Notes: generated from the letters alone by a model not told the origin. A stretch of DNA of 64,000 nucleotides from a bacterium (GCA_963675295.2 CAXXKJ010000002.1:4416001-4480000); one strand, 5' to 3'. Counted from the stretch's first letter, positions 4,224-38,360 are shown. Numbers and translations are program-made.

Positions 4224-4262
4224 CGTTCACCCGCGCTTGTTGCGTTCTTGATGTTAGGCTAA

Positions 4263-5630: not shown

Positions 5631-5972
5631 ATGAAGATTCTGTGGAAGATTATCGCAGTGGCTGTCGCAGTGATGGTGACGGCTTACATCCTGCCGGGCA
5701 TTGTGGTCGAAAGCTTCTGGGCGGCGGTGGTTACGGCGGTTGTACTGTCGCTGGTAAACATTCTGCTGAAGCCCTTGCTGGTGATCCTGACGTTGCCCGC
5801 GACAATCATGACGCTCGGCCTGTTCCTGCTGGTGATCAACGCATTGATGCTGCTGCTTGTCGGCGCGATTGTGCCGGGCTTTGGTGTCGACACCTTCTGG
5901 TGGGCTCTGATCGGGTCGGTGATCATTTCGTTGATCAGCTCGCTGCTCAACCCGAAGCGAAGGGATGACTGA
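5631..5972 (+). CDS. 4-TMS membrane protein, 'phage holin superfamily IV'/YvlD-like
   Basis: Hydrophobic; NILLKPLLVILTLP..TLGLFLLVINALML signature; TGATG overlap with cinA. Confidence 0.85.
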   Translation: MKILWKIIAVAVAVMVTAYILPGIVVESFWAAVVTAVVLSLVNILLKPLLVILTLPATIMTLGLFLLVINALMLLLVGAIVPGFGVDTFWWALIGSVIISLISSLLNPKRRDD

Positions 5973-7243: not shown

Positions 7244-7301
7244 CTCTCCTCATACTGAACACTTGTTTCATTCGAGATGTTGTGTTATTTTTACGCCCAC
7301 T

Positions 7302-18811: not shown

Positions 18812-18917
18812 TGTGTCAGTGGTGTCTGTGGCGTCTGTGGCGTCAGTTTCTTCTGTTGCGTCCTTTGCTTCTTTTGCGTCTGTGGCGTCTTTTGCGTCTG
18901 TGGCGTCTTTTGCGTCC
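18812..18917. repeat. 9-bp minisatellite, ~12 copies (KGCGTCTKT)
   Basis: tgtgtcagt ggtgtctgt ggcgtctgt ggcgtcagt ttcttctgt tgcgtcctt tgcttcttt tgcgtctgt ggcgtcttt tgcgtctgt ggcgtcttt tgcgtcc. Confidence 0.9.
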
Positions 18918-19056: not shown

Positions 19057-21597
19057 TCACCCTGTGAAGGTTCCGACCACGATCAGGACCAGCAGTGCAA
19101 GTCCAATCGCCAGCGCGCTGAACCCGAAGGTGTAGAGCAGGATACGCGGAATGACGGCCATCGGCTTGACACGCATGGTGTCGAGCTTGCCTTCCGCCTT
19201 CATCCGTTCGTACCACTCCTGGCGCTCTTCCATCATGTAGTGTTCGCTGACACGTCCCGTGAAGATGACTTCATCCATCGGGAAGTTCTCAGGACGGAAG
19301 TGCTCGTTGAAGAAATGTATGGTGAAGATGAAGCCTGTTGCGAGCAGTGCCTCCTCGGAGTGGATGATCATTGCAGCGTTGATCGCCCAACCCGGCAGGA
19401 ACCTGGTGAAGAATTCCGGGAACCACAAGGTGAGTCCGGACGCTCCGATCACCGCGACACCCCAGAACACCGCCATGTAGTCGAACTTCTCCCAGTAGGT
19501 GAACCGGTTGAAGGTCGGCCTTTCAGCGACACCGATGAAGAATCCGATGTGCTGGAAGAAGTCCTTGATGTCGCGCGGTTGCGGCACGAGGCTGTCGACT
19601 CCCCAGAGCAGGCTCTTCAGCGTCAACTTGCGTCGTACGAGCTTGTACATCAGGCCGCCGAGGTGCAACGCGAAGTAAGTGAAGGTCAATCCGGCACCGA
19701 TACGGTGCAGAATCGCCATCGTACGCAGATCGACGAGGTTGTTCGCGATCCAGTAGGATGCCTCAGTGTACGAATATTTCAGCGGCAGACCGGTCATCGC
19801 GAGCAGCAGGAAGCTGACGATCACGATACCGTGCTGGACGCGTTCGAATACGCCGAAGCGCATGTAGCGCACCTGACCCTTGCGTCCACGGATCTTCCGC
19901 CCGTGACGGATGCCATCCCAGCCGGCCCGCCACAGCCAGAGCAGGGTGTGGATGCCGAAGACGGTTAGCGTGATCCGCAGCAGCCAGACCATGAAGACGT
20001 GAATAATGTCGAGAACCGGATGTTCCTCGTGCGCCATCGGGTCGTAGTGCTGCAACTGGGCGACGAAGTTCTCGTTCACATCGTCGTGGCAACGACCGCA
20101 GGTTTCCATGATATGCTGCTGTGCGATGGAGGATTCCGGATTATCGCGCGGCAGGATCAAGTGGTTATCGTGGCACGAAACACAGGTCGCGAACTCCTCG
20201 CCCTGATAGCCCAGCGAATACGCCTTGCCGTGGTACGTGTTGAGGTAGCCACTGACGGCGTTCGGGTTGAGCTGGAAGCGGAGGATCATGTCACGGTCGG
20301 CGTGGCAGGACGCGCACAGCGAGATAATCGACTGACCGTCAAACTCCTTGGAAATCTTCTGGATCTGATCGCTGCCATGACAGGTTTCGCAGGTCGGGGC
20401 TTCAGTGTGGCCCTTGCGGAAGGCGACACCGTGTGCGGAACGTGACCAGAGGTCGTTCTCTTCCTCGTGGCAACTGGCGCAGCTTAGCGTACCGCCGCCG
20501 GCCTTGTGAGCTTCGGAGGCATCCTCATAGTGGTACGTGTGGCACTGCATGCAGGAGAAGTCGGTGCCATCCTCGCCGCTCATGATGGACGCGTGGGCGA
20601 GATTATCGTCCATGTGCGCGTCTTTATCATGGCAACGGTTACAGGTTTCGCTGACTTCTTCCTGGAAGTGTCCGCCGGCCTGGCCTTCGAAGTGTGTCTC
20701 GTGGCCGGTGTGGCATGCGGCGCAGGTCATCAGGCGCGCGTCCACCCCGCTCTTGCGGTGAATGGTGGCTTCCTTGCCCTCGTGGCACTGCGAGCAGGTG
20801 GCGTCCATGTTGTCGACATGGACCGGCGAGTGCCTGTCATCGACAGCGTAGATGTCGTGGAAGCCATGGCAATCGACGCAGATCGGCGCTTCCTCACTGC
20901 CCGCCTTGACGGCAAGGTAGTGTTCCGACTTGAGGTAGCCCTCGGAATCGTCCTTGTGACAGTTCAGGCATTTGCGGGTTACTTCAATCCGCCAGTCCGC
21001 CTCAAGCATGTCGCCACGTTCGTTCTTCGTGTGCGCGGCGTGGCACGAGGTGCAGGAGATGGTCGCATCCGTGGTTGAACCATGCACGGACTTCGCGAGC
21101 GTCTTCACCTCCTGGTTGTGGCAGACGCCGCAGACCTTGCGCGTGTCGGCCTCGCCGGAGATCTCGTGGTTGCCGTGACAGGACGTGCACCCGGGGATGT
21201 TGCTGAATCCGCGCGCCTCGAGGTGCTGATAGAACCCGTCCATGTACTCTTCGAACGCGTCATCGTGGCACATCGAGCAATCAACGCCCGGCAGGTTCGC
21301 TTCGTGCGGCCAATCCTCGACGCCGTCCAGCGACTGGTGGCAGTCGATGCAACCGAATCCGGCGTGGACCGACTCTTCGATCATCGCCGAATTCGCGTAC
21401 AGGGATTGCGGGATGCCCTGTTCCATGCGGGACATGTCTGGATCATCGTGACACATCTCGCAGGTTTCGTCATCCTGCGCGAACGCTCCCGCCGTCATGG
21501 TGAACAGCAGGAACGTCAGCAGAAACATCGCCATAGCGAGGGATGGTGTCATCCCTCGCGATGCGTTTACAGTTTTAATGCGGAAGAAGTGGATCAT
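19057..21597 (-). CDS. Multiheme cytochrome c (17 CxxCH) fused to C-terminal cytochrome b membrane domain, CbcL-like
   Basis: 17 CxxCH counted; C-terminal TM region with ERVQH..TGLP, ILHR, YWEKFDYMAVFWG, IHSEEALLA..HFF; start uncertain. Confidence 0.9.
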   Translation of the reverse strand: MIHFFRIKTVNASRGMTPSLAMAMFLLTFLLFTMTAGAFAQDDETCEMCHDDPDMSRMEQGIPQSLYANSAMIEESVHAGFGCIDCHQSLDGVEDWPHEANLPGVDCSMCHDDAFEEYMDGFYQHLEARGFSNIPGCTSCHGNHEISGEADTRKVCGVCHNQEVKTLAKSVHGSTTDATISCTSCHAAHTKNERGDMLEADWRIEVTRKCLNCHKDDSEGYLKSEHYLAVKAGSEEAPICVDCHGFHDIYAVDDRHSPVHVDNMDATCSQCHEGKEATIHRKSGVDARLMTCAACHTGHETHFEGQAGGHFQEEVSETCNRCHDKDAHMDDNLAHASIMSGEDGTDFSCMQCHTYHYEDASEAHKAGGGTLSCASCHEEENDLWSRSAHGVAFRKGHTEAPTCETCHGSDQIQKISKEFDGQSIISLCASCHADRDMILRFQLNPNAVSGYLNTYHGKAYSLGYQGEEFATCVSCHDNHLILPRDNPESSIAQQHIMETCGRCHDDVNENFVAQLQHYDPMAHEEHPVLDIIHVFMVWLLRITLTVFGIHTLLWLWRAGWDGIRHGRKIRGRKGQVRYMRFGVFERVQHGIVIVSFLLLAMTGLPLKYSYTEASYWIANNLVDLRTMAILHRIGAGLTFTYFALHLGGLMYKLVRRKLTLKSLLWGVDSLVPQPRDIKDFFQHIGFFIGVAERPTFNRFTYWEKFDYMAVFWGVAVIGASGLTLWFPEFFTRFLPGWAINAAMIIHSEEALLATGFIFTIHFFNEHFRPENFPMDEVIFTGRVSEHYMMEERQEWYERMKAEGKLDTMRVKPMAVIPRILLYTFGFSALAIGLALLVLIVVGTFTG

Positions 21598-24160
21598 CCT
21601 TCTCTCCGTCGGCATACTTGCCGGTGGGGGGCAAGAGCTTGGGTTCACGACCCAGTTCGTTCGTTTCATCGCTGTGGTGGTGGTCCCACTCGTGCTTCGG
21701 CATTCTTCCCGTAATCCAGATCCAGCTCATCGGATACTCGCGCGGAATGAAGATGGTGAAGAAGAAGTGCCAGATAATGATTGCACCAACAGCGAGAATC
21801 GCTTCGTAAAAGTGAATGGTTTCGCTGACTCGAATGACCCAGGCCGGCAGGAAGGCTGTGACCAGGTCCGGATACATCAGGATGAAGCCGGTCAGACCCA
21901 TGACAATCGTCCCCCAGACCAGGGCCCAGTACTCGGCTTTTTGCGTGTAGTCGAACATGCCGTGGCGCGGCTGCTTCGTCTTCATGCCCATGTAATAGGC
22001 CATGGTACCAAGCGCGCGTCCGGCGTCCTTCGGATGCGGGATCATCGCCTTCATCAGCTCACGTCCACGCGCGGTGAACCAGAGATACGCGATGTGGTAG
22101 AACGACGTGGCGATCATCAACCCGGCCATCAGGCGGTGGGTGAACGCACGAACGTTTTCCGTCATCCCGAGCGCAGTGAGCATTTTCACCCACCAGGCCT
22201 CCGGATAACGCAACGCGAAGCCGGTAATCGCCAGCACAATGAAGGTAAACGCCAGCAGGACATGCTGCCAGATCTCGTTCTTCGTCATGCGCAGCACGGC
22301 TTCCTGCGCTTCGTGGTGACGCTTGTGGTGACGGATGGTCTTGAACAGGATGAGACCGTTGTGGAAGGCCATTCCGCCGAGCACGATCGCGATCAGGATG
22401 ATGTAGATCACCTGCGCGTAGTCGTGAATACCCCAAGCGCCTCGCGCTGAGATGTGGCTGTAACTTGCCGCGAAGGTTGCGTTCGACTGCGGGTGGCACT
22501 TGCGGCAGGTTTCGACGACGTTGTCCGGGTGAATGCTCGATTCCGGATCGAAGATGCTGCGCACATCGTGCGTGTTGTGGCAGTCTTCGCACGTCGCAAC
22601 GGCTTCTCCACCGCGCTGAATCGCCCAGCCATGGTAGCTGTCCAGGTAACTGGAGAACACTTCGGTAGGCAGACCGTATCGCGCACCCATTTCCGGGTCT
22701 TCGTGGCACTCGCGGCATGCCATGTTGGTGATGTTGCCAGGATTGACCGGCGAGTTCGGGTCGCTGGTGTCGAGAATCAGGTGTTCGTCGTGGCAGTCGG
22801 TGCAGTCCGGCGAATCTTTGATACCGTGCTGGACCGCGCGTCCGTGAACTGAACCGGCGTATTTGTCCGCCACCTTGTCATGGCACTGGCCGCAGGTCTG
22901 CACCAGGTTTTCACGGGCGACCATCGAGCTCGGAACGTTCGCCGATTGCAAGTTGTGGCTGCCGTGGCAGTCGGTACACACCGCAGTGTGCTTGCCTTCA
23001 GCCAATCCCTTGCCGTGGACCGATTCCGAGTAGCTCGGCAAGCTGATCGGGAGGCGGACATAGTCGTTGGTGATGACGGTGTTGTCGGTGTGGCATTCGC
23101 CGCACATGTCCGGAATGTTGGCGTGGTTCACCGGGCTTTCCGGATTTTCCGCCGGGAGAATGTGGTGTCCGCCGTGGCAGTCGGCGCATTCCGCGGCGAC
23201 AACGTCCCCGTGCAAACGGGCGAGACGGTGGGCGCTGGTACGGTAGACCGCTTCCGCGTCTTCATGGCACTGGCCGCAGCCGAATTCGAGCTCGCTTCCC
23301 TCTTCAACATCCGCAGACACCTGGTGCGTCTTGTGGCAGGAGAGGCAGTTCATGTCCCCTTCGGCGAGCAGATCTTCGTGCACCGATCCGGTGAACTGGG
23401 AATCGTAATCGTCGTGACAGTCGACGCAGGCCTGTAGCGTGCCGCTGTCGACTTCAGGGATGTGGGTGGCGTGCACATCGTGGCAGGATGCGCAGTTGAT
23501 CGCCCCGCGTTCGGTTTCGCCGAACGGATGGCCGCCGATCATCACCGACTGCATCGCGTTGTCGTGGCAGGAGAGACAGATGGTGTTGACCGCGCCGGCG
23601 GACGGCGGCAGGTCGGCGCCGTGCGTCGGGTGGCAGGAGGTGCAGCCCGGGCTCGGCTTGCCCTGATCATGCGCAACCTGGTGCACCGACCCACGATACG
23701 CCTGGGTTTCCTTGCGGTGGCAAACCCGGCACGCGTTTTCCTCGATACCGGTGTCGACACTCTGCAGCCGGTGCGGGTCCTGGGATGAACCGTGGCAGTC
23801 GGAGCAGTTCGGCGCTTCACGCACACCCTGTGCCAGCGCACGGCCATGGAAGCTGCCATCGTAGCTGCCGGCGGCATCTTCATGGCACATGCTGCAGTCT
23901 ACCGGGTGGTAGACGCTGAAGTGGGGCAAATCTTCCCAGTCGGCTCCGGGTTGATCGTGGCAGTCGACACAGTCGAAGAAGCCGTGGACACTGTCCATGT
24001 AATACTCTTCGTCGACACCGACGATGGTACCATCTTCGGCTTCCAGTTCGGTATCGGCATGACACATCAGGCAGTCATCCGCTGACTGCGCGAACAGCAG
24101 AACCGGCAACAGCCAGATCAGCAGGAAGAACCCGAATCGAGTGTGCGGGTGCGCGTGCAT
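21575..24160 (-). CDS. Multiheme cytochrome c (19 CxxCH) fused to cytochrome b membrane domain, CbcL-like paralog
   Basis: 19 CxxCH counted; EIWQH..TGFAL, THR, YTQKAEYWALVWG, IHFYEAILA..WHFF; signal peptide. Confidence 0.9.
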   Translation of the reverse strand: MHAHPHTRFGFFLLIWLLPVLLFAQSADDCLMCHADTELEAEDGTIVGVDEEYYMDSVHGFFDCVDCHDQPGADWEDLPHFSVYHPVDCSMCHEDAAGSYDGSFHGRALAQGVREAPNCSDCHGSSQDPHRLQSVDTGIEENACRVCHRKETQAYRGSVHQVAHDQGKPSPGCTSCHPTHGADLPPSAGAVNTICLSCHDNAMQSVMIGGHPFGETERGAINCASCHDVHATHIPEVDSGTLQACVDCHDDYDSQFTGSVHEDLLAEGDMNCLSCHKTHQVSADVEEGSELEFGCGQCHEDAEAVYRTSAHRLARLHGDVVAAECADCHGGHHILPAENPESPVNHANIPDMCGECHTDNTVITNDYVRLPISLPSYSESVHGKGLAEGKHTAVCTDCHGSHNLQSANVPSSMVARENLVQTCGQCHDKVADKYAGSVHGRAVQHGIKDSPDCTDCHDEHLILDTSDPNSPVNPGNITNMACRECHEDPEMGARYGLPTEVFSSYLDSYHGWAIQRGGEAVATCEDCHNTHDVRSIFDPESSIHPDNVVETCRKCHPQSNATFAASYSHISARGAWGIHDYAQVIYIILIAIVLGGMAFHNGLILFKTIRHHKRHHEAQEAVLRMTKNEIWQHVLLAFTFIVLAITGFALRYPEAWWVKMLTALGMTENVRAFTHRLMAGLMIATSFYHIAYLWFTARGRELMKAMIPHPKDAGRALGTMAYYMGMKTKQPRHGMFDYTQKAEYWALVWGTIVMGLTGFILMYPDLVTAFLPAWVIRVSETIHFYEAILAVGAIIIWHFFFTIFIPREYPMSWIWITGRMPKHEWDHHHSDETNELGREPKLLPPTGKYADGEKDDPLLPH

Positions 24161-24599
24161 CTGAATCCATCTCCACCAGGTTGTGCGTTGAACAAAGCGT
24201 TTGCAGCGGTTGCAGTTCCGTTCAACGCGTGGCCCCATAATGGGGTCGTGTCAAGGCGTGAGGTCGTCCTCACGAAGTTGTTTGTGCGTGGAAACAATCG
24301 GTCTTAGGCCGGCTGGCATCAGAATTAGGCAATTCGTGGTATCGCTTGCCGTTTGATCAATCCAGCCATTGTGAATATAATAACGAACCCTCCTCGATAC
24401 CGATTGTTAAGCTCTCCAAACCTCTGGTATTTCAACAACAGAGCGGGTGCCGAAATCTCACCCGCTCGTGCAAATCTTCACAAACTTTTAACAGCAGTAA
24501 ACCGTGTGGAAGTGTGGCCTGCAGCCTTGGGGGCTCCACGGCTGCAGGCCGACACGCCGTCTGGGGGGCTGACGGCAGTTTCACACGGAAAACCACTCA

Positions 24600-25133
24600 C
24601 TATTCGCCCTCGGGAACGCTGTGTTCGATCTCCGCCCAATACTCTTCGAGGACGAATGGCTTGTAGGTCGGGCTCTCTTCATTATGGCAGGACACGCAAC
24701 CTTCTTTCGGCGCGGCGACCATGCCGTTTGCGATGGAAGCTTCACGATCCTTCATGATCTTCATCGACTTGTAGTCGGCGCCGGCACCATGGCAGGATTC
24801 GCAGGAGATACCGTCGGCCATGTCGAGGTCGGCGGTCAGGCTGGCATCCATACCGTACCCGGTGACGTGGCACTTCAGGCATTCGGCGGCTTCCTGCGGG
24901 TTACCGAGGCCCTTTTCGGTGGCGATGGCTTTTGCCTCATCGGTGGCGAGGGTTGCGTACGCCTTGGCGTGCGGACCTTCCTGCCACTTCTCGAGGATCA
25001 TGCCTTTCTTTTCACCCTTGTGGCACATGCCACATTTGTTCGCTCCGATGAACGCATGGTCTTGCGCGAACACGTCGGCGCTATAGGCTCCCACCACGAG
25101 GATGGCGAGGAGCAAGATCAGGATCTTTCGCAT
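24600..25133 (-). CDS. Periplasmic tetraheme cytochrome c, c554-like
   Basis: Signal peptide MRKILILL; CGMCH, CLKCH, CESCH, CVSCH; W..GPHAKAY and GISCESCHG.G pattern. Confidence 0.88.
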   Translation of the reverse strand: MRKILILLLAILVVGAYSADVFAQDHAFIGANKCGMCHKGEKKGMILEKWQEGPHAKAYATLATDEAKAIATEKGLGNPQEAAECLKCHVTGYGMDASLTADLDMADGISCESCHGAGADYKSMKIMKDREASIANGMVAAPKEGCVSCHNEESPTYKPFVLEEYWAEIEHSVPEGE

Positions 25134-25194
25134 GTATCTATGCCTCCTTTGTGAAGGAAATGTGGTTTCCTCAAGTTCCGCGTTTTTTCTTGTA

Positions 25195-26163
25195 CTATTC
25201 GTTGAAGTTAACAGATCCATTAATGTGCAGATCTTCGTTCACAATCTCAACGAATGTGTCGTCATCATCGCCGTCCGCACCGACAACAGCCCCGTGGCAC
25301 GAGACGCAGTCATCGTTGGCCGGGTGGCCCTGTTCGAGCGGCGGCGGATACATGTGGCACGAGGTGCATGTGAACTCGACGTTCTGCAGCCGCCAGTCAA
25401 GCACGCCACCGCCGTGACAGTAGACGTTCGAACAGGTGCTGGCGTCCGTATTCCATTCCGGATCGAAATCACCAGTCCGTGCGACACTGCCGAAGCGGAT
25501 TTCGACCATGCCCGGGGTGTCGTCGTTGTAGTGACCATCCGCAACGGCCTGTGCCGGTTGGCGGTGACAGTCGGCGCAAGTCATGTCCGCGTGCCAGCCG
25601 CTGCCAGCGAGGTGCGTCATGTGTGCGCCCTTGTCGGGTGCCCAATCGATCATGACGGACGCGTCACCTTCAAAGTTACCGTGGCAGGTATTGCACGCCA
25701 GGGCACCGAGTTCGCTGTCGTGGCAGCCTTCGGACGAGCAGCTGCCGCCGAAGTCGACGTCCAGCTGATCCGCGGGTTGACTGGTCGCGGAGTGACAGGT
25801 GTAGCACTCGTCCATCATGTATTCGTTTTCACTCATCCACTGCGCGTGTTCGAACGCGTTGTCGAAAAAGACATAGTGGTTGTTGGTGTTGTGGCACTCG
25901 GTGCAGGCGCGCACCGGGTCCATCGGATCACCGAGTTCAACACCGCGCAGCTCTTCACCATGGCACTCGGTACACTGGGCGAAATCGTAATCCTGTGCCA
26001 CCATGTAGGCAGCGTGGCTGGATTCACCGAACGGGTGCCGCGCCTCGGCTGGCGAGGTCGGATCCCAATCGTCCGCGACTTCACTCCCGCAGCCTGTCAG
26101 CAGACCAGCGACGGTCAGCACCAGGATCGGGAGGAGCCAGCGTGTATCACGTTTCTTCAGCAT
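25195..26163 (-). CDS. Lipoprotein multiheme cytochrome c with CxxxxCH/CxxCH motifs (9 hemes)
   Basis: Lipobox LLTGC; 7 CxxCH plus CSSEGCH and CSNVYCH; C-terminal HINGSV. Confidence 0.88.
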   Translation of the reverse strand: MLKKRDTRWLLPILVLTVAGLLTGCGSEVADDWDPTSPAEARHPFGESSHAAYMVAQDYDFAQCTECHGEELRGVELGDPMDPVRACTECHNTNNHYVFFDNAFEHAQWMSENEYMMDECYTCHSATSQPADQLDVDFGGSCSSEGCHDSELGALACNTCHGNFEGDASVMIDWAPDKGAHMTHLAGSGWHADMTCADCHRQPAQAVADGHYNDDTPGMVEIRFGSVARTGDFDPEWNTDASTCSNVYCHGGGVLDWRLQNVEFTCTSCHMYPPPLEQGHPANDDCVSCHGAVVGADGDDDDTFVEIVNEDLHINGSVNFNE

Positions 26164-26175
26164 GGTTCGTCTCCT

Positions 26176-27003
26176 TTACTGGTGACACCGGGCACAGACC
26201 GGGTCCTGGTTTTCGACATCGTGGCACGCGAGGCAGGCGAGCAGGAATGCGCTGGCGTCATCAACGTGCTCACCGCCGTCCGCGTTGTTGGCGTACGTTG
26301 GCCCGAGCGGGTGCGGCGTCGGCACGGTCGCGCGGTGGCAGGCGATGCAGTCGTCGCGGGTTTCATGGCACGACAGGCATTCCTGTCCGTACATGGTTTC
26401 CAGCGAGTGGGAGAAGCGCCACTCCGGCGGATGCGGCGTGTTCGCCAGGATGTTTTCGCCCTGGTGGCATTCGTCGCACGTGTTCTGAGTGTGGCAGGCG
26501 GCGCAATCGTTCTCGCTCATCATCGCGTCCATGCCGTGATCATGTACCCAGGTTTCGAGCCGGTGCGTCGTCGGCGTCACCTCGAGATCTTCGTGGCAGC
26601 CCTGGCAGCTTTCGCTGGTCGGATAGCCGGGTTCCATCTCGTCGGCGGGACCGTGGCAGGCGGCGCAGTCGAGATCGCCGTGATTGCCGTGCGCGAAGGT
26701 TGTGTATTTCGTACCGGCGTACACTGCCGGCGCGGCCATCGGATCGCCGACGTGACAGGTTTCGCAGTCATCGTCGACGTCGTGGCACATTTCGCAGGTG
26801 TCGTGGTTCGGCACCGGGATCATGTCGTCGAGCATCGTGTCCATGATGCCCGCGTGACAATCTTCACAGGCAATGCCGGCGTCCGCGACGTGCAGCGGAT
26901 GGTTAAAGTTGAGGTGGCCGTAGTTTCCGCCGATGGCGAACCAGGCAACGGTCAGCAGCCCGAGCAGCAGGGCGGCGATGCGGATGGTGCGTTTCGTCGT
27001 CAT
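26176..27003 (-). CDS. Periplasmic 11-heme cytochrome c (c3/c7-like N-terminus)
   Basis: Signal peptide; FNHPLH and FAHGNH distal-His motifs; 11 CxxCH. Confidence 0.9.
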   Translation of the reverse strand: MTTKRTIRIAALLLGLLTVAWFAIGGNYGHLNFNHPLHVADAGIACEDCHAGIMDTMLDDMIPVPNHDTCEMCHDVDDDCETCHVGDPMAAPAVYAGTKYTTFAHGNHGDLDCAACHGPADEMEPGYPTSESCQGCHEDLEVTPTTHRLETWVHDHGMDAMMSENDCAACHTQNTCDECHQGENILANTPHPPEWRFSHSLETMYGQECLSCHETRDDCIACHRATVPTPHPLGPTYANNADGGEHVDDASAFLLACLACHDVENQDPVCARCHQ

Positions 27004-28265
27004 CGTGTCACCTCCGCGGTATCAAATCCCCAGCGCAGGCCGATCATCGCCCGGCGGTCCTGATCGTACTGTGGCGTCTGGAAGTGCTGGTACTCGAGTT
27101 TCATCGACACACCGTGCAAGAAGGCCGGGTAGTAGTTGACACCACCATACAGCGACAGGATTTCGCTCGTGTCGTCGTTGGTGTTGTCGAACGCCTCCCA
27201 TTCGTAGCTGGCGAAGGAACCGTAGCCGTAGACCTCGATCTGGTCCAGCATCATGTAGTTTGCCTGGGCCCAGAAGCCGTTCGCGGTCGGCTGATCGCCG
27301 GCGTAAAAGCGGTAGCCAATGCGGCCGAACGGGAACTTAGCGTACGGTCCGATGCGGTAGCCGGGTTTGTCGGTCATCAGGGCGGCGATGTCAAATCCCA
27401 TACCCCACATGTCCTTGACAAACCAGCGGTCGGCGGCGGCACGAACGCGGAAGAACGTCGTTTCATCGAAGTCTGCGAAGTAGCTTTCTTCGGGTGCTTC
27501 AGCGGAAATGGCTGACACTTCCAGCATGCGCGAGCAGATCTCGCCATTCATGCGGACGCGGCTGATGAAGCGCCGCAGCGGTGTGCCTTCGGTGCGGAAA
27601 CGGAACAGGTTGTACCACGTGATGGAATTGGTGAACCGGTGTGTGGTCTGCAGGCCGACACGGTTGCGCAGCTCTTCCTTGTCACGCTGAATGTTTGCGT
27701 AGGAGAGTGCGATGTGGGTCTGACGTGCCCAGAGCACATTGCGTCCCACCCAGCCAACTTCACCGCCGAACGCCATCGATTCATCCGGATCTTCGAATTC
27801 GAATTCCCGGGTGATCGGACCCCAGAGGCCGCCGAAGAGGGCGACGTTGAAGCCGTGCTTGAAGCGGTAGTTGACGTCGAGGCCGTCCAACACACCGATC
27901 GCCGGACCACGAACGAGAAAGAAGCGGCCGAGCTTCGCGCGTACCGGTGATCCGAGATCGCCGTAGCGCAGGTAGCCGCGGGTGAAGCGGAGAACGTCGT
28001 CCTCCACCCCTTCCTTATAGACGTTGTCGCCGGTCCAGCCGCCGCTGAAGTGGAGGGACCACGGAGATCCCGTCTTGTACAGCGACGCGCTCGTTTGCTG
28101 CATCATCCACACGTGATGCTGGTTGTCGGCATCCTGGTAGCCGTACGCGCTGCCACCGATGGACCCCTTGAGCCGGAAATCGCCAGCCGTGGCAGTGCCC
28201 GCGACAGCGAGCAATGCGACGGCTGTCAGGGTGACGATTGTCCAGCGTCCCCAATTCCTGTTCAT
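27000..28265 (-). CDS. Outer-membrane beta-barrel protein (putative porin of a porin-cytochrome complex)
   Basis: Signal peptide, alternating aromatic/Gly strands, KLGRFF, C-terminal IGLRWGF; no heme motifs; 4-bp overlap with the 11-heme gene. Confidence 0.75.
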   Translation of the reverse strand: MNRNWGRWTIVTLTAVALLAVAGTATAGDFRLKGSIGGSAYGYQDADNQHHVWMMQQTSASLYKTGSPWSLHFSGGWTGDNVYKEGVEDDVLRFTRGYLRYGDLGSPVRAKLGRFFLVRGPAIGVLDGLDVNYRFKHGFNVALFGGLWGPITREFEFEDPDESMAFGGEVGWVGRNVLWARQTHIALSYANIQRDKEELRNRVGLQTTHRFTNSITWYNLFRFRTEGTPLRRFISRVRMNGEICSRMLEVSAISAEAPEESYFADFDETTFFRVRAAADRWFVKDMWGMGFDIAALMTDKPGYRIGPYAKFPFGRIGYRFYAGDQPTANGFWAQANYMMLDQIEVYGYGSFASYEWEAFDNTNDDTSEILSLYGGVNYYPAFLHGVSMKLEYQHFQTPQYDQDRRAMIGLRWGFDTAEVTR

Positions 28266-28444
28266 GCGTTCCTCCCATTTGGGAAAGGAAGTAAGCCCAT
28301 GTATTGCAATGTTTTAGCTTGACCTTCGAAAGCAGACGACCGCCTGCGCCGGATGTTGGGGGGCGCCGGCGGTCGTCCGTAATGGTCAACCGATACAGAC
28401 GGTGACGGTGTCTAGCATGGTACCGTCCTGTCTGTTACTGCCAA

Positions 28445-29923
28445 TTATTCCGCCAGGTGATCGATGGCGTTCTGCAGCAGATCCATCGAGTAACTGGGGT
28501 TGTGAATGCCCATCGACCCGTCGTTGACGACGAACACCAGGGCGTACGCGGCTTCACGTTCTGCCACAGTGACGCCATCCGCCTGGCTGTCGAAGTTATC
28601 CGCGAAGTCCATGTAGTCCGAATAACCGAGGGCAACCGCGAGCTCGTTCATCTTGGCTTCGGTGTCGGTCTGGACGCCACCCTTGTCGAAGTCGCCCGGA
28701 TCGAGGCTGTGGCAACCGTAGCAGGCCGCGCCTTCCGGAGCGAACTGGTGGTAAACGTGCTCAGCTTCTTCACCGTGCAGCTCTTCGAAGCGGACCATGT
28801 GGCAGGCCACGCAGCCGCTACGTTCTTCGTTGGCGAGGACGTTCTGGTGCGAGTTTTCGCGATCGTAGTCGTAGCCATCGATCTCGTAGCAACCCCAACC
28901 GATGAACATGTCCATCTGCGGCGATCCGTGCGGACCGAAGTGGGCGTAGCCGTCTGCGATCTGGCCAAGCACGTTGTCGGTGTCGCGACGCGCGTGGTGG
29001 CACTGGGCGCAAGTCTGGCCGGCGTAGAAACCGTCGAACGTACCCATGGACGGATCTTCTTCCGGATCGTAGCCTGGGTGGAATTCGACGTGGACGGCAC
29101 TGACGTTACGCAGCTGTCCCGGGTTGTTCGCATCGTGCGGATCGTGGCAGGTCTGGCAGCCAATCCAGCTGTACGGACCATCGTAGTCGGCATGAGCCGC
29201 GTCATTGGCCGCGATGAAGCCTTCACCGGTATGGCACGGGGCGCAGGAACCGCCGGCATAATGCTCTTCGCGGAATCCTTCGAGGTTGCCACCGGCGTTG
29301 GCATGACCGGACATCTGCCATTCTTCGAGCTGACGCTCGTGGCACGGCATGCAGGTGGATTCGAATTCGATTTCGCCGCCGACATCTTCCCAGATGGTGG
29401 AAAGGCCGACTTCAGCGCGGTGTGCACCAACGCCATCCAGCGGGCCGAGGGCGCCGTGGCAGGCTTCGCACTGCACGCCTTCGAGGGCGGCACGGCGCAT
29501 GGCAGCGGAATCGCCTTCAACGCCGAAGTAGTTGTCGTAGCCGTACATGTCTTCGCCACCCGGGAATTCAGTGGCACCGAACGAGACCATTTCGTCAACA
29601 CCGGTCACGTGGCACTGCAGGCAGTAGGGGTTTTCCTGATCTTCGGCTGCCAGATCGGCGTAGGCGTTCGGGTGGGCGGTACCCATCCAGCCATCAACGG
29701 TCGCGCCGTGGCAGTGGGCGCATTCGTCACCGTTGTTGCCGATAAAGGTGAACGGGTCGATGGTGGCATCCTTGCCGTCTTCACCGTCCTGGCCATCTTC
29801 ACCCGCTTCACCCTGCTCACCCTGCGGACCCGCCGGGCCCTGCGCGCCTTCTTCGCCTTCACAACCGAAGAGCACAAAAGCCAGCATGATCGCAAGCATC
29901 ATGACTAACAGGTTACGAAACAT
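28445..29923 (-). CDS. Lipoprotein 9-heme cytochrome c with N-terminal collagen-like (Gly-X-Y)10 segment
   Basis: AGGAGG RBS, lipobox LFGC, GEEGAQGPAGPQGEQGEAGEDGQDGEDGKD, 9 CxxCH, C-terminal DGSMGIHN helical tail. Confidence 0.9.
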   Translation of the reverse strand: MFRNLLVMMLAIMLAFVLFGCEGEEGAQGPAGPQGEQGEAGEDGQDGEDGKDATIDPFTFIGNNGDECAHCHGATVDGWMGTAHPNAYADLAAEDQENPYCLQCHVTGVDEMVSFGATEFPGGEDMYGYDNYFGVEGDSAAMRRAALEGVQCEACHGALGPLDGVGAHRAEVGLSTIWEDVGGEIEFESTCMPCHERQLEEWQMSGHANAGGNLEGFREEHYAGGSCAPCHTGEGFIAANDAAHADYDGPYSWIGCQTCHDPHDANNPGQLRNVSAVHVEFHPGYDPEEDPSMGTFDGFYAGQTCAQCHHARRDTDNVLGQIADGYAHFGPHGSPQMDMFIGWGCYEIDGYDYDRENSHQNVLANEERSGCVACHMVRFEELHGEEAEHVYHQFAPEGAACYGCHSLDPGDFDKGGVQTDTEAKMNELAVALGYSDYMDFADNFDSQADGVTVAEREAAYALVFVVNDGSMGIHNPSYSMDLLQNAIDHLAE

Positions 29924-29997
29924 TGGGGGCTTCCTCCTGAATGTTTGGCGGCCCTGAACCGCCGAAATGACTTCAATGCTGCTACTTGTTTCCAGAT

Positions 29998-30240
29998 TCA
30001 CAAAGTGCCGCGATAAAAATCGAGCGCTTTTTCGTCGTCTTCGTCAAACCATCCCATTTGCCGGTGCCGCTTGATCTGTTCCAAGGATAGTTTGCGCAGA
30101 TGCATCGCGTAATCATGCAAGGTGCCAAAGACGATACCGCTTTCCGTGTCCGTTCGAACCTCAGTTCCCTTGTGCGCAACTTCGAGCATCCGCTGACTTA
30201 AGGTCAGGATCTCCAGCAGGTAGCGGTTCTCGACGGACAT
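29998..30240 (-). CDS. Small helical hypothetical protein (80 aa), first gene after the sigma-54 promoter
   Basis: GGAG RBS; MSVENRYLLEIL...GIVFGTLHDYAMHLRKL...HRQMGWF. Confidence 0.75.
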   Translation of the reverse strand: MSVENRYLLEILTLSQRMLEVAHKGTEVRTDTESGIVFGTLHDYAMHLRKLSLEQIKRHRQMGWFDEDDEKALDFYRGTL

Positions 30241-30271
30241 ATCGGACTCCAATCCAGTTGCCGATCCATTG

Positions 30272-30286
30272 GCAGATTGTGTGCCA
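30272..30286 (-). promoter_or_regulatory. Sigma-54 (-24/-12) promoter of the cytochrome operon
   Basis: TGGCACACAATCTGC (GG-N10-GC), ~30 bp before the ATG at 30240. Confidence 0.75.
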
Positions 30287-30374
30287 TTTTCACAAAGTAA
30301 GACACTCCTAACAGCTAAACAGTTAAGAAAAGGAGGGTTAGTAAACTTAGGGGGTGCAAAAACAAAATAATGGT

Positions 30375-30540
30375 GTGACAATTCCTGACAATTCCGTGAC
30401 ATTCATTCCTGAACACTCGGAATTTTTGTACACGCGAAGTCTGCGTGGAGGCTCTAACAGCTTACTATTACCGGGGATTAACAGGCTGGACAGAATTTCT
30501 GAACACTCGATATGTCCAGAAATGAATTTCTGGACAGAAC
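30375..30540. promoter_or_regulatory. Putative upstream activating sequences for an enhancer-binding protein
   Basis: Perfect inverted repeat TGTCCAGAAAT-ga-ATTTCTGGACA (30513-30536), direct repeats CTGAACACTCG (30409, 30499) and TGACAATTCC x2. Confidence 0.65.
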
Positions 30541-30548
30541 TGTAATCA

Positions 30549-32285
30549 TTACACTTTTAATTCTTCGATGTAGCGGTACAGGGTTGTGCGGCTAACCCCG
30601 AGGAAATCCGCGGCTTTGGCTTTGTTGCCGCCGGCTTCCTTTAGCGCCTGTTCCACTTCGGCGGGATTCAGCTTGGGACGCCGGCCGCGCTTCGGGCCTC
30701 CCTGCTTAATGGAATTGCTGGATATTTCTGGCGACAGGTGATGTTCCTGAATTTCGCCGCCCTGCGATTTGATCATCGCGTAGTGGATGGCGTTTGACAG
30801 CTCGCGCACGTTCCCAGGCCAGGCATATTGCATCAGCGCGTTCAATGCGTTACTGGAAACCCCCTCGGCGGCCATGTGGTTCTCATTGGCGAACTGCTCG
30901 ATGAAATACTCAATGAGTAGTGGGATGTCGGTCTTGCGTTCGCGAAGTGGCGGGATACGGATCGGCACCACCGCGAGCCGGTAGTACAGGTCCTGGCGGA
31001 ACTGGCCGGAGTCGGTGAGTTGCTTCAGGTTGCGGTTGGTCGCGCAGATGACCATCACGTCCACGTTAACCGGTTCTTCCCCACCAACGCGCTCGAAGGT
31101 TTTCTCCTGCAGCACGCGCAGCAGTTTCACCTGCAGCTTCTGGCTGATCTCGCCGATTTCGTCCAGGAACAGGATGCCGCCGTCCGCCAGCTCGAACCGT
31201 CCCTTCTTGTCCCGGATCGCGCTGGTGAACGCGCCCTTGACGTGGCCGAACAGTTCGGATTCCAGCGTTCCCTCGGGCAACGCGCCACAATTGACCGGAA
31301 CAAATGGTTTGTTCGCGCGGGGGCTTAGCTTGTGGATCGCCTGCGCGACCAGCTCCTTGCCGGTACCGCTCTCCCCTTCAATGAGAATCGGCACATTGAC
31401 CTTCGCCACCTCACGCAGGTTAGCGTAAATCTTTGTCATCGACGGGTGCAGGCCGATAATGCCCTGGAAGCCGCGGCTGGCTTCGAGCCGGGTGCGCAGC
31501 TGGTTCATCTCGGTCATGTCCCGGAGCAGGATCAATGCGCCGGTGCGATTGTCCTCGGCGTCCATCATCGGCATGATCGACATGCGCAGGCTGCGCAGTT
31601 CGCCGTCCTTGCGGCGATATTCGATCGGGATGTCGGCGCGCACATCGATGTTCGGATTCTTCATGCACACGTCGCAATCCTTGCCGCAGAAATGGCCGGG
31701 CATGATCGCGTGGCAATCGGCGCCGAGCGCTTCTCCGGCGGAGAGGCCGGTGATATCCTCGGCGGCGTGATTGAAGAAGAAAATCTTGCGTTGCTTGTCG
31801 TGGGCGATGACACCGTCCGTCATCGCGTTCAGCAGCCTGCCGTAGCTGAGTTGCAGCTCGACAATCGCCTCGAAGTAGCCCTGTTCGAAGAAGATACGGA
31901 CCCGGTCACGGATTTCGTCCCGTACCCGGCGGAAGTGATCGGTGAGATCCTTGCCGTTTCCCTTGACCAGCACCAACGGATCGCTGAGTCCCCAATGAAC
32001 GCGTGCCGGCGAGCCCGGGAATTGCGGATTCTCTTCCTGTAGTCGCACACACACCGTCACCACCGCCTCAAAACTGGTGGCGGTCAGTTCCTGCATCGCC
32101 GGGCTGGAATCCGGGATTTCGAGGTCAACTTCCGCCATCACCTTGCGCGCAACGGGGTGCACCATCTCCGGTTCAAGGCTGGCAGCGTGGATCTCAACGT
32201 TGTCCGGGGCCATATGACGCGCGAAAGCAGCCGCCATTTGGCTGCGGCCGGATGGACCCTTGCAGATGAACAAAATGTGGTGCAT
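30549..32285 (-). CDS. Sigma-54 enhancer-binding protein: ArsC/LMW-PTP-like + PAS + AAA+ + Fis HTH
   Basis: ILFICKGPSGRSQMA, HWGLSDP, FRRVRDEIR; PAS (DGVI..FNHAAEDITG); GESGTGKE, ESELFGHVKGAFTSA, WPGNVREL, HTH AADFLGVSRTTLYR. Confidence 0.93.
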   Translation of the reverse strand: MHHILFICKGPSGRSQMAAAFARHMAPDNVEIHAASLEPEMVHPVARKVMAEVDLEIPDSSPAMQELTATSFEAVVTVCVRLQEENPQFPGSPARVHWGLSDPLVLVKGNGKDLTDHFRRVRDEIRDRVRIFFEQGYFEAIVELQLSYGRLLNAMTDGVIAHDKQRKIFFFNHAAEDITGLSAGEALGADCHAIMPGHFCGKDCDVCMKNPNIDVRADIPIEYRRKDGELRSLRMSIMPMMDAEDNRTGALILLRDMTEMNQLRTRLEASRGFQGIIGLHPSMTKIYANLREVAKVNVPILIEGESGTGKELVAQAIHKLSPRANKPFVPVNCGALPEGTLESELFGHVKGAFTSAIRDKKGRFELADGGILFLDEIGEISQKLQVKLLRVLQEKTFERVGGEEPVNVDVMVICATNRNLKQLTDSGQFRQDLYYRLAVVPIRIPPLRERKTDIPLLIEYFIEQFANENHMAAEGVSSNALNALMQYAWPGNVRELSNAIHYAMIKSQGGEIQEHHLSPEISSNSIKQGGPKRGRRPKLNPAEVEQALKEAGGNKAKAADFLGVSRTTLYRYIEELKV

Positions 32286-33111: not shown

Positions 33112-34551
33112 TTATCTAATCAGTGTCACGCGCTGGGTGGCGCGGTGACCGTCCGGAGTGAGCAGCTGAATGACGTACACCCCGCTGGCGTTATCGTGCG
33201 CGGACCAGGTAATCGGGACAACACCGGCGTTGGTTGCGGGGACCGACCAGTAGTCGACCTGCCGTCCGAGCATATCAAACACCGCGACCTGTACCGGCCC
33301 GGTGGTGGGTGTGGTCAGGGTCAACGTGGTGTTGCTGTTGAATGGGTTTGGATAAGCGGGCTGAAGCTCGAAACCGGGGACGATGGTAATCAATCTTTCA
33401 GCATCCTTGGACGCCAATACCGGGTCATCGATCAAATACTGCACCAAACCCAGGTAATACATAGTAAGATCTTGATCGTAACCAACATAGCCAAATAAAA
33501 GTTCCTGATCTGATACTACAGTAACTGGATGCCGTGAGTCGCGAGAATTGAACATCTCCTCGCTGAAACGCAGGTTCCCTTCAGGCCCAGAAAGCTGTAC
33601 ATGTCCGTTTCTCCAGCGCAGGATCGTAATACCATCCCTCCAGCATGTAATGCTTCCCAGTTTACAAACTTGAGGAAGTGGGAAAGCGTTGGTGTAGTTC
33701 CAAATTAGGTTTCCACCAGCATCCAATTTCGTTCTGGAGAAGTATAAAGCAGATTCCTCTGTAAGGATATAAGTATTTCCATCGGTATCCTGATCAATAC
33801 TGTGAATGTCGGCATCGCCGAATTCATAAGTCCACCGATGATTACCGTTTAAGTCATAACTCGTAACCATGGCGTCCCTGTGGTCATAAAATTCCTCATA
33901 ACCGTACACAACCGTGCTCGGAGATATGTCTGCTGCAAGTCTTAACTCGTAAGCTTGCGGATTATCGTCCATTATTCGTGTACCTATTTGCTGCCCGCTC
34001 ATGGCGTTAATAGCCATCAGAAATTCCTTCACATGTCCTTCCGATTGCTTGAAAAAACCGGCAACGAGAACCGTATCCATACCAAGAATGGTCAGATCAC
34101 TTAGTTTTTTCCGCGTAGCCGGCCATGCCTCATGAGTGTTGAATTCCCACATTAACGTTCCGATAGTACTGTATCGTTTTACGATCAGATCGCGCGGTAG
34201 GCCCTGTGTATTTCTCCGGCTGTTGTGAGTGTAAGCGACTATCATGCTGCCATCCCACAGTGGTTCGATAAACGCATTCTGGAAATCGGTTGGCCAGTAG
34301 GCCTGATCCACAACGGTTAACCACAGTTCATTTCCGGTATGATCACTAGCGCGTAGGTAGAGCGTTTTCAGGTTCCACTGGTCAGTTTTAAATAACTGTA
34401 CTACCGACCTGTCAGGGAAAATGATAGTATCAAAACTGCGTAGCGGTAATTCAAGATCGTAGTAGCGGCTTTCCATCACGATAGTGTACTGTGCCGATGC
34501 GGTGGAAAAAGCAAGCAGGACCAGTAAAAGACAAAGAAACGTTTTTCGCAT
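33112..34551 (-). CDS. Secreted beta-propeller-type protein with T9SS type-A sorting domain
   Basis: Signal peptide, GxxxW repeats, AYPNPFNS..VFDMLGRQV..SGVYVI..QRVTLIR. Confidence 0.85.
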   Translation of the reverse strand: MRKTFLCLLLVLLAFSTASAQYTIVMESRYYDLELPLRSFDTIIFPDRSVVQLFKTDQWNLKTLYLRASDHTGNELWLTVVDQAYWPTDFQNAFIEPLWDGSMIVAYTHNSRRNTQGLPRDLIVKRYSTIGTLMWEFNTHEAWPATRKKLSDLTILGMDTVLVAGFFKQSEGHVKEFLMAINAMSGQQIGTRIMDDNPQAYELRLAADISPSTVVYGYEEFYDHRDAMVTSYDLNGNHRWTYEFGDADIHSIDQDTDGNTYILTEESALYFSRTKLDAGGNLIWNYTNAFPLPQVCKLGSITCWRDGITILRWRNGHVQLSGPEGNLRFSEEMFNSRDSRHPVTVVSDQELLFGYVGYDQDLTMYYLGLVQYLIDDPVLASKDAERLITIVPGFELQPAYPNPFNSNTTLTLTTPTTGPVQVAVFDMLGRQVDYWSVPATNAGVVPITWSAHDNASGVYVIQLLTPDGHRATQRVTLIR

Positions 34552-36061: not shown

Positions 36062-36355
36062 GGGATACTCCTTTCATACGTGTACACCACCGGTCAAGTC
36101 TGATAGCACGAACGTTGGGGCGACCGGCACCTCTGATCGCTGGAATATACCTCGGTTTGGGACCAACGCGCCAGTCAACGGGGACAGAATCAGGAATTCG
36201 CCGGTTTTCCGGGCTTCATGACGTTCATTAGCTTGATCGTACGCTCTCAATAGCCGGGAAGACTATGCGAAAAACTGACGTTCATCTTGCGATCTGTTTT
36301 GCAGCCATCTATGTTAACCCTTGCAATTGAGCCAACATCAAATGAGGTATCTGCC

Positions 36356-38044: not shown

Positions 38045-38360
38045 CTGGTTGCTGGTATTGGTGCATACAGCCGTGACTCTCAATTCACCTTCTCCCTTGA
38101 TGGATCCCACGTGATGGACGCTGGGACCAGGAGTGGTTGAAATCAACCACTCGACCACGTTTTATGGATTCCAACAGCGTATATTCGTCGCAGGGAGCGA
38201 CCCGCGTTGGCCGAGCCAACACGGGCAAGACGCCTGGTGGGACTATGGACACGGACGTATCCGGGGACACTTTGAGGACAAAGTGTCCCCGGATACGAAG
38301 CACGGGCTTGCCTGTTCATCCCCCTCTCCTCCATCCACTGATATGAGACACAGGGCGACG

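Follow-up and report, generated by a model that had tools for sequence, protein, structure and literature searches.

Gene content of the cluster

A 64,000-nucleotide stretch of a bacterial genome (GCA_963675295.2, contig 2, positions 4,416,001-4,480,000; referred to here as the window) carries a candidate porin-cytochrome gene cluster, the products of which may together connect the inner membrane with the cell surface. Open reading frame (ORF) calling places eight co-oriented ORFs on the minus strand, from window position 30402 down to 19057; the GC content of the window is 59%. These code for one small conserved protein, two lipoprotein cytochromes, a beta-barrel and four further multihaem cytochromes, the last two of which are fused to a membrane cytochrome b domain. 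In the order of the minus strand, with CxxCH haem motifs counted after translation, the genes are as follows.

29998-30240, minus: conserved protein of 80 amino acids (aa) with no signal peptide; start ATG at 30240
28445-29923, minus: lipoprotein A, a nonahaem cytochrome of 492 aa with a lipobox, Gly-X-Y triplets and a haem domain of the OcwA/NrfA family; probable true start ATG 29923, with the Shine-Dalgarno sequence AGGAGG ahead of it; 9 CxxCH in the frame 28445-30001
27000-28265, minus: outer-membrane beta-barrel of 421 aa with a signal peptide and 22 predicted strands, from an AlphaFold2 (AF2) model and fold matches; 0 CxxCH
26176-27003, minus: 11-haem cytochrome of 275 aa, the predicted barrel insert; it lacks a lipobox and begins with a signal or anchor helix; 11 CxxCH
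25195-26163, minus: lipoprotein B, 322 aa, with a lipobox and a TIGR01904 domain; 7 CxxCH and 2 CxxxxCH
24600-25133, minus: tetrahaem cytochrome (177 aa), secreted and belonging to the c554 family, with PF13435 and a signal peptide; probable true start 25133; 4 CxxCH in the frame 24600-25220
21575-24238, minus: 19-haem cytochrome c fused to an FdnI/HydC-like membrane cytochrome b domain; probable start near 24160; 19 CxxCH
19057-21669, minus: 17-haem paralogue of this c/b fusion with an extra C-terminal membrane helix; probable start near 21552; 17 CxxCH

The first-pass annotation of this DNA had described eight co-oriented genes with 69 haem motifs counted by hand. The minus-strand ORFs are present as it described them, and the program count gives exactly the same sum (9+11+9+4+19+17), two CxxxxCH motifs included. 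The span it assigned to the cluster, 19057 to 30286, holds for the gene coordinates, but with 30286 it ends at the upstream limit of a sigma-54-type promoter. What it called a small leader protein is instead, judging from sequence, the conserved 80-aa cytoplasmic protein listed first. A longer 134-aa ORF (29998-30402) was considered as a leader and rejected, because homologues begin at the internal Met and the 54 codons ahead of it, which lie over the promoter, are unneeded. Also discarded were a plus-strand ORF of 653 aa (25102-27063) and other antisense ORFs, which are by-products of high GC; the motifs and the homology lie on the minus-strand frames. The fraction of GC at third codon positions (GC3) is 0.70-0.79 in the seven larger ORFs of the cluster, a value typical of genes in the window, with 25195-26163 and 26176-27003 left out of the scoring because a spurious antisense ORF masked them.

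The clustering of haem motifs at this site is not a matter of chance, since the whole 4.81-Mb genome contains only 21 frames with at least three CxxCH motifs (counting stop-to-stop frames of at least 60 aa), of which six fall inside these 11 kb together with 67 of the 213 motifs found in such frames. The genome also has the means to mature such proteins. A search for cytochrome c maturation genes, which had been suggested along with the original description, located two ResB/CcsA loci of System II elsewhere in the genome, and CcmE was not found in it; maturation is thus by System II only.

Barrel, lipoproteins and cytochrome c/b fusions

The protein encoded at 27000-28265 had been taken for a beta-barrel from its sequence, and structure prediction agrees. 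Its AF2 model, built on a ten-sequence alignment (pLDDT 78.5, pTM 0.69), consists of a signal helix at residues 3-24 followed by 22 beta-strands. The matches listed by Foldseek (the top 50 ranks) are outer-membrane barrels and pores, including the FimD and PapC ushers, AlgE and porins, at E 1e-9 and weaker, while VIA ranks TonB-dependent receptor barrels first (PirA, Z 19.4, rmsd 4.4 Å over 335 aligned residues). MtrB (6r2q) is absent among the matches listed by either program, from which neither likeness nor difference follows. Generic outer-membrane barrel families of Pfam are hit sporadically among 58 members of the barrel family (OMP_b-brl by 4, LptD by 3, Porin_4 by 2 and BBP2_2 by 1), and an Atlas search with the barrel returned only unnamed clusters (0.98), most commonly from Zixibacteria and Myxococcota.

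The start of the gene for the 11-haem cytochrome overlaps the stop of the barrel gene by 4 nt, and its product is densely packed, with 25 aa per haem. Across eight sequences, the 11 CxxCH motifs are accompanied by 11 further invariant His residues, enough for bis-His ligation of every haem. The best sequence match in the Protein Data Bank (PDB) is 3ov0_A (E 2.7e-20), an entry named 'cytochrome c family protein' that we take to be the Geobacter dodecahaem c7 polymer GSU1996. With the MtrA chain of 6r2q, the E-value is no better than 0.012, and TIGR03508, the MtrA/DmsE decahaem family, has no match in the protein at E<=0.01. This cytochrome is predicted to sit inside the barrel. A co-fold of the two proteins scored 0.53, compared with 0.00 for the best of three controls, with a partner pLDDT of at least 61 and at least 50% of contacts shared between runs. 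The mark for such co-folds is reached by 116 of 157 solved complexes and by 2 of 215 mismatched pairs; it is reached with a score of 0.60 or less by only 18 of the 157 solved complexes and by both mismatches that pass, which puts the present score in the weak band. Of the porin-cytochrome core claimed in the first-pass annotation, the barrel and the lipoprotein signals are present in the sequence, whereas surface exposure and insertion of the 11-haem protein into the barrel are predictions.

Both cytochrome lipoproteins that had been called from sequence do carry conserved lipoboxes: VLFG/C in lipoprotein A, kept in 6/6 homologues, and LLTG/C in lipoprotein B, of the same type in 7/7. Directly after its lipid-bearing Cys, lipoprotein A has ten uninterrupted Gly-X-Y triplets (6-10 in homologues), and these score 27.2 bits with Pfam Collagen, exactly at the cut-off. 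The remainder combines an N-terminus that matches cytochrome c554 in Pfam with a C-terminal part that matches NrfA (Cytochrom_C552 C-terminal region, E 1.3e-7). When a profile of six orthologues is compared with the PDB, OcwA (6i5b_A) is found at E 5.7e-11, ahead of the NrfA chains (1e-7 to 5e-5). All nine CxxCH motifs are invariant in six homologues, and there is a conserved CHH at motif 7; the motif count of the cluster proteins revealed no CxxCK or other catalytic-haem signature. OcwA (6I5B) is a nonahaem terminal reductase on the cell surface of Thermincola potens, built from a globular haem domain and an NrfA-like three-helix bundle. It reduces nitrite and hydroxylamine in vitro, has two high-spin haems and turns over nitrite with a kcat of 1 per min (PMC6703420). 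By its similarity to OcwA, lipoprotein A is predicted to be a surface terminal reductase as well.

Acidic residues follow the lipid Cys in both lipoproteins (CEGEEG and CGSEVADD). In Bacteroidetes, acidic residues behind this Cys form a surface-export signal (PMC5080379), to which the stretches seen here, from another phylum, bear only a loose resemblance. Lipoprotein B matches the CxxxxCH/CxxCH domain TIGR01904 with 38.1 bits (cut-off 27) and is predicted to be the outer-membrane partner of the barrel and its insert. The tetrahaem cytochrome, which scores 68.3 bits with PF13435 (cut-off 20.8), would be a periplasmic carrier.

The two c/b fusions, of 870-887 aa, are 27-29% identical to each other. 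In both, a signal that looks cleavable is followed by some 560 aa of multihaem domain, and a membrane domain forms the C-terminus. Their b domains match TIGR01583 (E 5.5e-13 for the 19-haem protein and 6.3e-7 for its paralogue), and also TIGR02125 (E 1.2e-7, 19-haem protein) and NF007558. Six membrane His residues are invariant over nine sequences of both paralogues (numbered as in the 19-haem protein, H626, H659, H701, H715, H809 and H824), and they include an HX13H and an HX14H pair. Both fusions are predicted to be quinol:cytochrome oxidoreductases of the CbcL type, a label taken from their architecture and their likeness to FdnI/HydC rather than from the sequence of CbcL.

Conservation, lineage and transcriptional control

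A search of related loci, which had been proposed as a check on the cluster, found the core trio of barrel, insert and lipoprotein B in 18 of 19 loci (labelled L009, L010 and so on below where they must be told apart). In seven of these, the insert, lipoprotein B and the tetrahaem cytochrome invariably follow the barrel, lipoprotein A is present in 6/7, and so is the 19-haem fusion, the seventh locus ending just after the tetrahaem gene; the activator described below and the small gene occur in 3/7. In 12 loci from other genera and families of the phylum, the barrel has the insert and a lipoprotein B-like protein next to it 11 times, the contig of the twelfth ending at the barrel, and the tetrahaem cytochrome is present in six. 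Moreover, the trio is kept down to a barrel identity of 24-29%, and in three loci of another family a 19-haem fusion (40-43% identical) is located directly beside the barrel. Orthologues of the 19-haem fusion are 86% identical in L009 and 57-72% identical in five more distant loci, and the 17-haem protein has orthologues in L009, L010, L014, L015, L025 and L033.

The barrel itself was found in 28/41 of the nearest genomes, in 42/79 genomes of the phylum and in 14/15 of the family. When its profile was run against 1.84 billion representative sequences, 278 clusters were recovered at E<=1e-3 and 22 at E<=1e-30. Twenty of the representatives were looked up; the taxon names available (for five clusters) are Calditrichia, Fidelibacterota, 'FCB group' and 'bacterium' only, and no functional or Geobacter name appears among the twenty.

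The host had been described as apparently of the Fibrobacteres-Chlorobi-Bacteroidetes (FCB) type and from a lineage rich in the type IX secretion system (T9SS), and this assignment is upheld. RecA of the window shares 97% identity with the RecA of an unclassified metagenome-assembled genome (MAG), and the nearest named sequences are from a 'Calditrichaeota bacterium' (85%) and 'candidate division KSB1' (74%). The host is an uncultured bacterium of Calditrichota-like affinity. Six proteins in the 64-kb window have T9SS sorting domains.

36287-38044, 45653-47080, 57584-59824 and 60487-61710: proteins with T9SS sorting domains
33112-34551 and 34601-36061, minus: tandem paralogues (479 and 486 aa), both with a signal peptide and with nearly the same C-terminal T9SS sorting domain

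The tandem paralogues have no haem motifs and match no other family, and their GC3 (0.53-0.57) is lower than that of their neighbours. Some T9SS proteins of these organisms are cytochromes. For example, L012, from the same genus, has two extra genes directly upstream of its lipoprotein A orthologue, at 3960-5888 and 6116-7510. One product is an NrfH/NapC-anchored cytochrome, in which a variant motif joins 17 CxxCH; the other is a cytochrome with 8 haems that ends in a T9SS domain (Por_Secre_tail, E 3e-11). An 18-haem protein of the NapC type is also present in L014. In the host genome, two regions of contig 2 (414612-417047 and 425533-428586) code for large 5-CxxCH cytochromes with C-terminal T9SS sorting domains. 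The gene pair of L012 suggests that the T9SS can deliver multihaem cytochromes to the surface beside the conduit. Elsewhere on contig 2, a 543-aa frame adjacent to frames for cytochromes with 46 and 20 motifs (2803754-2809014) has weak similarity to the barrel profile (match at 2802813-2803154, profile positions 90-203, E 7.3e-7), which hints that this frame and the barrel of the cluster are distant relatives.

Upstream of the cluster and within it, several sequence features bear on its expression.

30549-32285, minus: sigma-54-dependent activator (bacterial enhancer-binding protein) with LMW-PTP/ArsC-like, PAS, AAA+ and Fis-type helix-turn-helix (HTH) domains
30513-30536, minus: near-perfect palindrome of 24 bp, then related half-sites, just after the activator gene
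30272-30286, minus: sigma-54-type -24/-12 promoter, TGGCAC-N5-CTGC, 47 nt upstream of the small gene
24441-24550, minus: two RNA hairpins predicted by RNAfold in the 361-nt gap behind the tetrahaem gene, the second then followed by TGTTGTTG

Taken by itself, the sigma-54 pattern shows no enrichment across the window (17 occurrences, 12.2 expected), so the promoter call is based on position and conservation. All four loci that include the region (the window, L009, L011 and L013) have a GG-N10-GC element 45-57 nt ahead of the small gene, and L013 has a perfect TGGCAC-N5-TTGC at the promoter position. Expression of the outer module is thus probably driven from a sigma-54 promoter. The small gene behind it is conserved along with the region: its 80-aa product is 99% identical in L009 and 60% identical in L011 (barrel 63%), and L013 has a 72-aa homologue (barrel 38%). 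No Pfam or NCBIfam family matches this protein, and an Atlas search returned unnamed clusters only (0.87).

The activator is likely to be the regulator of the cluster, which it also adjoins in L009, L011 and L013. Its Pfam matches are Sigma54_activat (235.3 bits), HTH_8 (40.6 bits), LMWPc (37.8 bits) and PAS, and it reaches E 2.4e-23 with the arsC family TIGR02691, below the cut-off of that model. In 4/4 homologues, the CxGxSGRS loop of the ArsC/LMW-PTP-like domain is invariant, as is a second Cys of this domain, and the PAS domain has four invariant Cys residues spaced C-x8-C-x3-C-x2-C. A thiol-based ArsC-like domain together with a four-Cys PAS domain suggests redox sensing; this pairing of sensors appears unusual, and binding of a metal or an Fe-S cluster might be involved. 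The palindrome behind the activator gene, which has a counterpart of similar kind at the same position in L009 and L011, is a candidate binding site for the activator. A second sigma-54 activator, of the response-regulator type, is encoded at 38133-39830 of the window, 6 kb from the first.

Because two strong hairpins (-35.8 and -19.0 kcal/mol) follow the tetrahaem gene, the two c/b fusions may be a separate unit, and the cluster probably consists of two transcription units, with the fusions forming the second. The hairpins could be a terminator or an attenuator. A simple terminator scan did not flag them, and generic scans of the window for sigma-70 promoters and terminators gave counts not above those of shuffled sequence (4 vs 3.4 and 13 vs 11.1). 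On the plus strand at 18829-18906, between the 17-haem gene and an amidase gene, there are three closely spaced copies of a GC-rich hairpin motif, each with a T-rich tail.

Proposed electron path, its direction and relation to known systems

The genes, haem motifs, lipoboxes, barrel fold, family similarities and conserved synteny are features of the locus itself, and the motifs, fold and family matches confirm the earlier description of a porin-cytochrome module and CbcL-type oxidoreductases in one co-oriented cluster. We hold with moderate confidence that the cluster specifies a porin-cytochrome conduit between the menaquinone pool and the cell surface, through which electrons pass outward to external acceptors. 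In this proposal, the b domains of the two CbcL-type fusions, presumably dihaem and in the inner membrane, would oxidise menaquinol, and their 19- and 17-haem periplasmic domains would pass electrons to the 11-haem wire, either directly or by way of the c554-like tetrahaem cytochrome. The 11-haem c7-repeat cytochrome, seated in the 22-strand barrel, would span the outer membrane, on the outer face of which lipoprotein B and lipoprotein A, the latter on its short Gly-X-Y tether, would receive the electrons. The final acceptors would be insoluble or colloidal, such as Fe(III) or Mn(IV) oxides, humics, partner cells or electrodes, and the neighbouring activator would control the sigma-54 promoter of the outer module. 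Assembly, surface exposure, substrate and direction are what we infer from these parts.

Taken separately, the two halves of this proposal differ in strength. That the conduit architecture is real seems to us quite likely. Given a real conduit, outward (respiratory) flow is fairly probable by analogy, and it is favoured because OcwA, the one biochemically characterised relative, is a terminal reductase. The caution that accompanied the first description, that the direction of electron flow is unreadable from sequence, stands.

Several observations weigh against the proposal. The barrel has no Pfam or NCBIfam match at E<=0.01 and no PDB sequence match in a profile search at E<=10, and MtrB_PioB (PF11854) matches 0/58 members of its family, the window protein included, at E<=0.01. 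The co-fold of barrel and insert falls in a band where predictions are wrong more often than right, except where the pairing was likely in advance. The best single stretches shared by lipoprotein A and 6i5b_A reach only E 7.3e-5 and 1.6e-3, and the likeness to OcwA is one of sequence because the AF2 model of lipoprotein A is unusable (mean pLDDT 38.2, with only the C-terminal helices at 414-491 reaching 57-87). The b domains score 49.4 and 29.6 bits with TIGR01583, for which the curated cut-off is 115.85, and the match to TIGR02125 is also below its cut-off. The origin of the quinone is a further difficulty: MenA is above its cut-off in the genome, and MenD, MqnA and MqnE were not found in this 92.8%-complete assembly. 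In L013 and L014, which are more distantly related, a protein with two rhodanese stretches and a cytochrome with 9-10 motifs are inserted between the tetrahaem and 19-haem genes (L013:14216-16400 and L014:14266-16399). Finally, the genome carries two haem-copper oxidase catalytic subunits and a dsrA, which make inward flow or sulfur chemistry possible. The dsrA match (contig 2, 1133752-1136027) is above its cut-off with 576.8 bits, contains one TAA within the matched stretch and has a dsrB-like neighbour. Together with the oxidases, it suggests a facultative organism with dissimilatory sulfur metabolism.

The alternative that fares best keeps the same hardware and reverses its use, so that Fe(II), reduced minerals, cathodes or syntrophic partners would be the donors and the electrons would enter the quinone pool or the oxidases, as proposed for MtoAB, PioAB and the PCC3 clusters. 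CbcL/MtrH/MtoC homologues occur in Fe(III) reducers and Fe(II) oxidisers alike (PMC6295460), and iron oxidation has been proposed for Calditrichota MAGs that carry Cyc2 (PMC9769843). The two oxidases, and the frames for 46- and 20-motif cytochromes in the same genome, would also fit an inward path. Nevertheless, the nearest characterised relative of lipoprotein A works as a terminal reductase (PMC6703420), and two features of outward-type Geobacter systems, lipoprotein cytochromes on a barrel and CbcL-type fusions, are present here; haem potentials, for their part, are not fixed by sequence. We consider inward flow unlikely, while granting it a real chance.

A smaller chance, low enough to call improbable, attaches to a conduit that feeds an enzyme. 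Lipoprotein A, through haems with open coordination such as its NrfA-family relatives have, would then reduce soluble or colloidal species of S, Se, As or N at the surface or in the periplasm, as has been proposed for ExtHIJKL of Geobacter. Its match to the C-terminal region of NrfA and the nitrite and hydroxylamine reduction by OcwA, with its two high-spin haems, point in this direction, as do dsrA, the ArsC/LMW-PTP-like thiol domain of the activator and the rhodanese-domain protein with its accompanying cytochrome in L013 and L014. However, that insertion is absent from the window and its closer relatives, no catalytic-haem signature was seen among the motifs of the cluster, nitrite turnover by OcwA is very slow (PMC6703420), and a soluble substrate needs neither a wire inserted in a barrel nor cytochromes anchored to lipid.

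We regard as very improbable the remaining alternative, a network confined to the periplasm and inner membrane, with periplasm-facing lipoproteins and a barrel that serves as an ordinary pore through which a substrate diffuses. In its favour, lipoprotein orientation is unreadable from sequence, the Pfam, NCBIfam and PDB searches tie the barrel to no known conduit barrel, and the co-fold is weak. Against it, 22 strands put the barrel in the size class of plugged or occupied barrels, to which TonB-dependent receptors and ushers, its top fold matches, belong, the co-fold controls scored 0.00, and an unrelated pore is hard to reconcile with an order of barrel, haem-dense cytochrome and lipoprotein cytochrome, in overlapping or abutting genes, that is kept across families at 24-29% barrel identity.

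In layout, the cluster resembles the OmbB-OmaB-OmcB and ExtABCD/ExtEFG systems of Geobacter, in which the gene for a barrel of about 20 strands is clustered with those for multihaem cytochromes, a periplasmic one and one or two lipoproteins, often with inner-membrane and periplasmic cytochromes nearby, as is the case here. The adjacent barrel, lipobox-free 11-motif cytochrome and lipobox-bearing cytochromes of the window have this gene layout; lipoprotein B carries the Geobacter-type TIGR01904 domain, and the insert has c7-type repeats like those of 3ov0. The cluster differs in the 11-haem size of its insert, in the OcwA-type lipoprotein, in the two CbcL-type genes and in the sigma-54 activator that it includes. 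The family of its barrel has no Pfam or NCBIfam model, and those of the 20 representatives looked up that bear a taxon name are FCB MAGs.

With MtrCAB, MtoAB and PioAB, the system as predicted shares the logic of a barrel that sheathes a wire of roughly ten haems and a lipoprotein cytochrome at the surface. It differs from them in that its barrel family lacks MtrB_PioB matches, its insert has no match to the DmsE/MtrA family at E<=0.01, and 22 strands are predicted. The MtrB barrel has 26 strands. In the proposed whole-envelope conduit PCC3, a porin and periplasmic and extracellular multihaem cytochromes are combined with a dihaem b-type inner-membrane protein, the cytochromes having medians of 34 and 21 motifs and low-complexity repeats, and the inner-membrane protein being a separate polypeptide of 300 aa with five helices (PMC5566968). 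The cytochromes of the cluster are smaller and lack such repeats, and their b domains are part of the same polypeptides as the c domains.

The fusions share with CbcL, MtrH and MtoC an N-terminal periplasmic multihaem c domain and a C-terminal HydC/FdnI-like membrane b domain with conserved His residues, and their 19 and 17 motifs in 870-887 aa are within the range published for such homologues (3-23 CxxCH in 416-1034 aa), which occur in 15 phyla and include one in Calditrichaeota (PMC6295460). What sets the present proteins apart is that they are tandem, diverged paralogues kept as a pair, that they have six rather than three conserved membrane His residues, and that the porin-cytochrome module to which they are directly linked is of another type than MtrAB. 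OcwA and OmhA, in turn, are surface terminal reductases of Gram-positive electrogens (PMC6703420; bioRxiv 10.1101/2022.02.24.481543). Lipoprotein A resembles OcwA in its nine CxxCH motifs, its length (492 vs 526 aa), its c554-like N-terminal module and its NrfA-like C-terminal helical region, and is unlike it in being a diderm lipoprotein with a (Gly-X-Y)10 tether and a gene next to that of a barrel.

The claim of novelty made in the first-pass annotation, of such a conduit in a lineage that is not a model electrogen, can be kept for the unstudied lineage and the unusual parts, but not for the kind of system. Porin-cytochrome clusters are catalogued for six phyla, with Ignavibacterium album of the FCB group among the species (PMC4245776), and for Ignavibacteria MAGs (PMC7399161), Geobacter-like ones are reported for I. 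album and Melioribacter roseus (PMC4245776, PMC7399161), CbcL homologues are on record as noted above, and Calditrichota MAGs carry multihaem proteins and Cyc2 (PMC9769843). A published description of this cluster was not found in the literature, although the supplements of PMC6295460 and PMC4245776, which were outside the search, may list relatives. The genome paper of Caldithrix abyssi makes no mention of extracellular electron transfer, and 'porin' there concerns BtuB. What appears to be new, on the sequences compared, is an unannotated barrel lineage apparently centred on FCB bacteria, together with a putative OcwA-type lipoprotein on a Gly-X-Y tether in a diderm conduit, a conserved tandem of probable CbcL paralogues, and likely sigma-54 control.

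Extracellular electron transfer is understood mechanistically only in a few Proteobacteria and Desulfobacterota and a few Gram-positives. The size of the barrel family, with its 278 representative clusters, implies that current screens with hidden Markov models for MtrB, OmbB, ExtB/E and ExtI may miss members, and the connection between the OcwA family and a diderm porin-cytochrome module is the first of its kind in the literature surveyed. The barrel, its 11-haem insert and the lipoproteins also form a compact operon that is a candidate synthetic conduit. Even if the system should turn out to be ordinary, genes now labelled "hypothetical" would be better annotated.

Calditrichota-like bacteria are reported to be widespread in marine sediments. 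A bolder view, which we offer tentatively and do not expect to hold in full, is that the cluster represents a distinct FCB-wide porin-cytochrome family with its own barrel lineage, a lipid-anchored nonahaem reductase of the OcwA type, which so far is known only from Gram-positive electrogen walls, on a collagen-like stalk away from the outer membrane, tandem 19- and 17-haem CbcL paralogues across the periplasm and T9SS cytochromes that extend the wire outside the cell, and that these sediment bacteria may be major, overlooked respirers of minerals or partner cells. At the least, the cluster is a defined gene set, conserved across the phylum, with which a role of Calditrichota-like bacteria in metal, humic or interspecies electron cycling may be tested.

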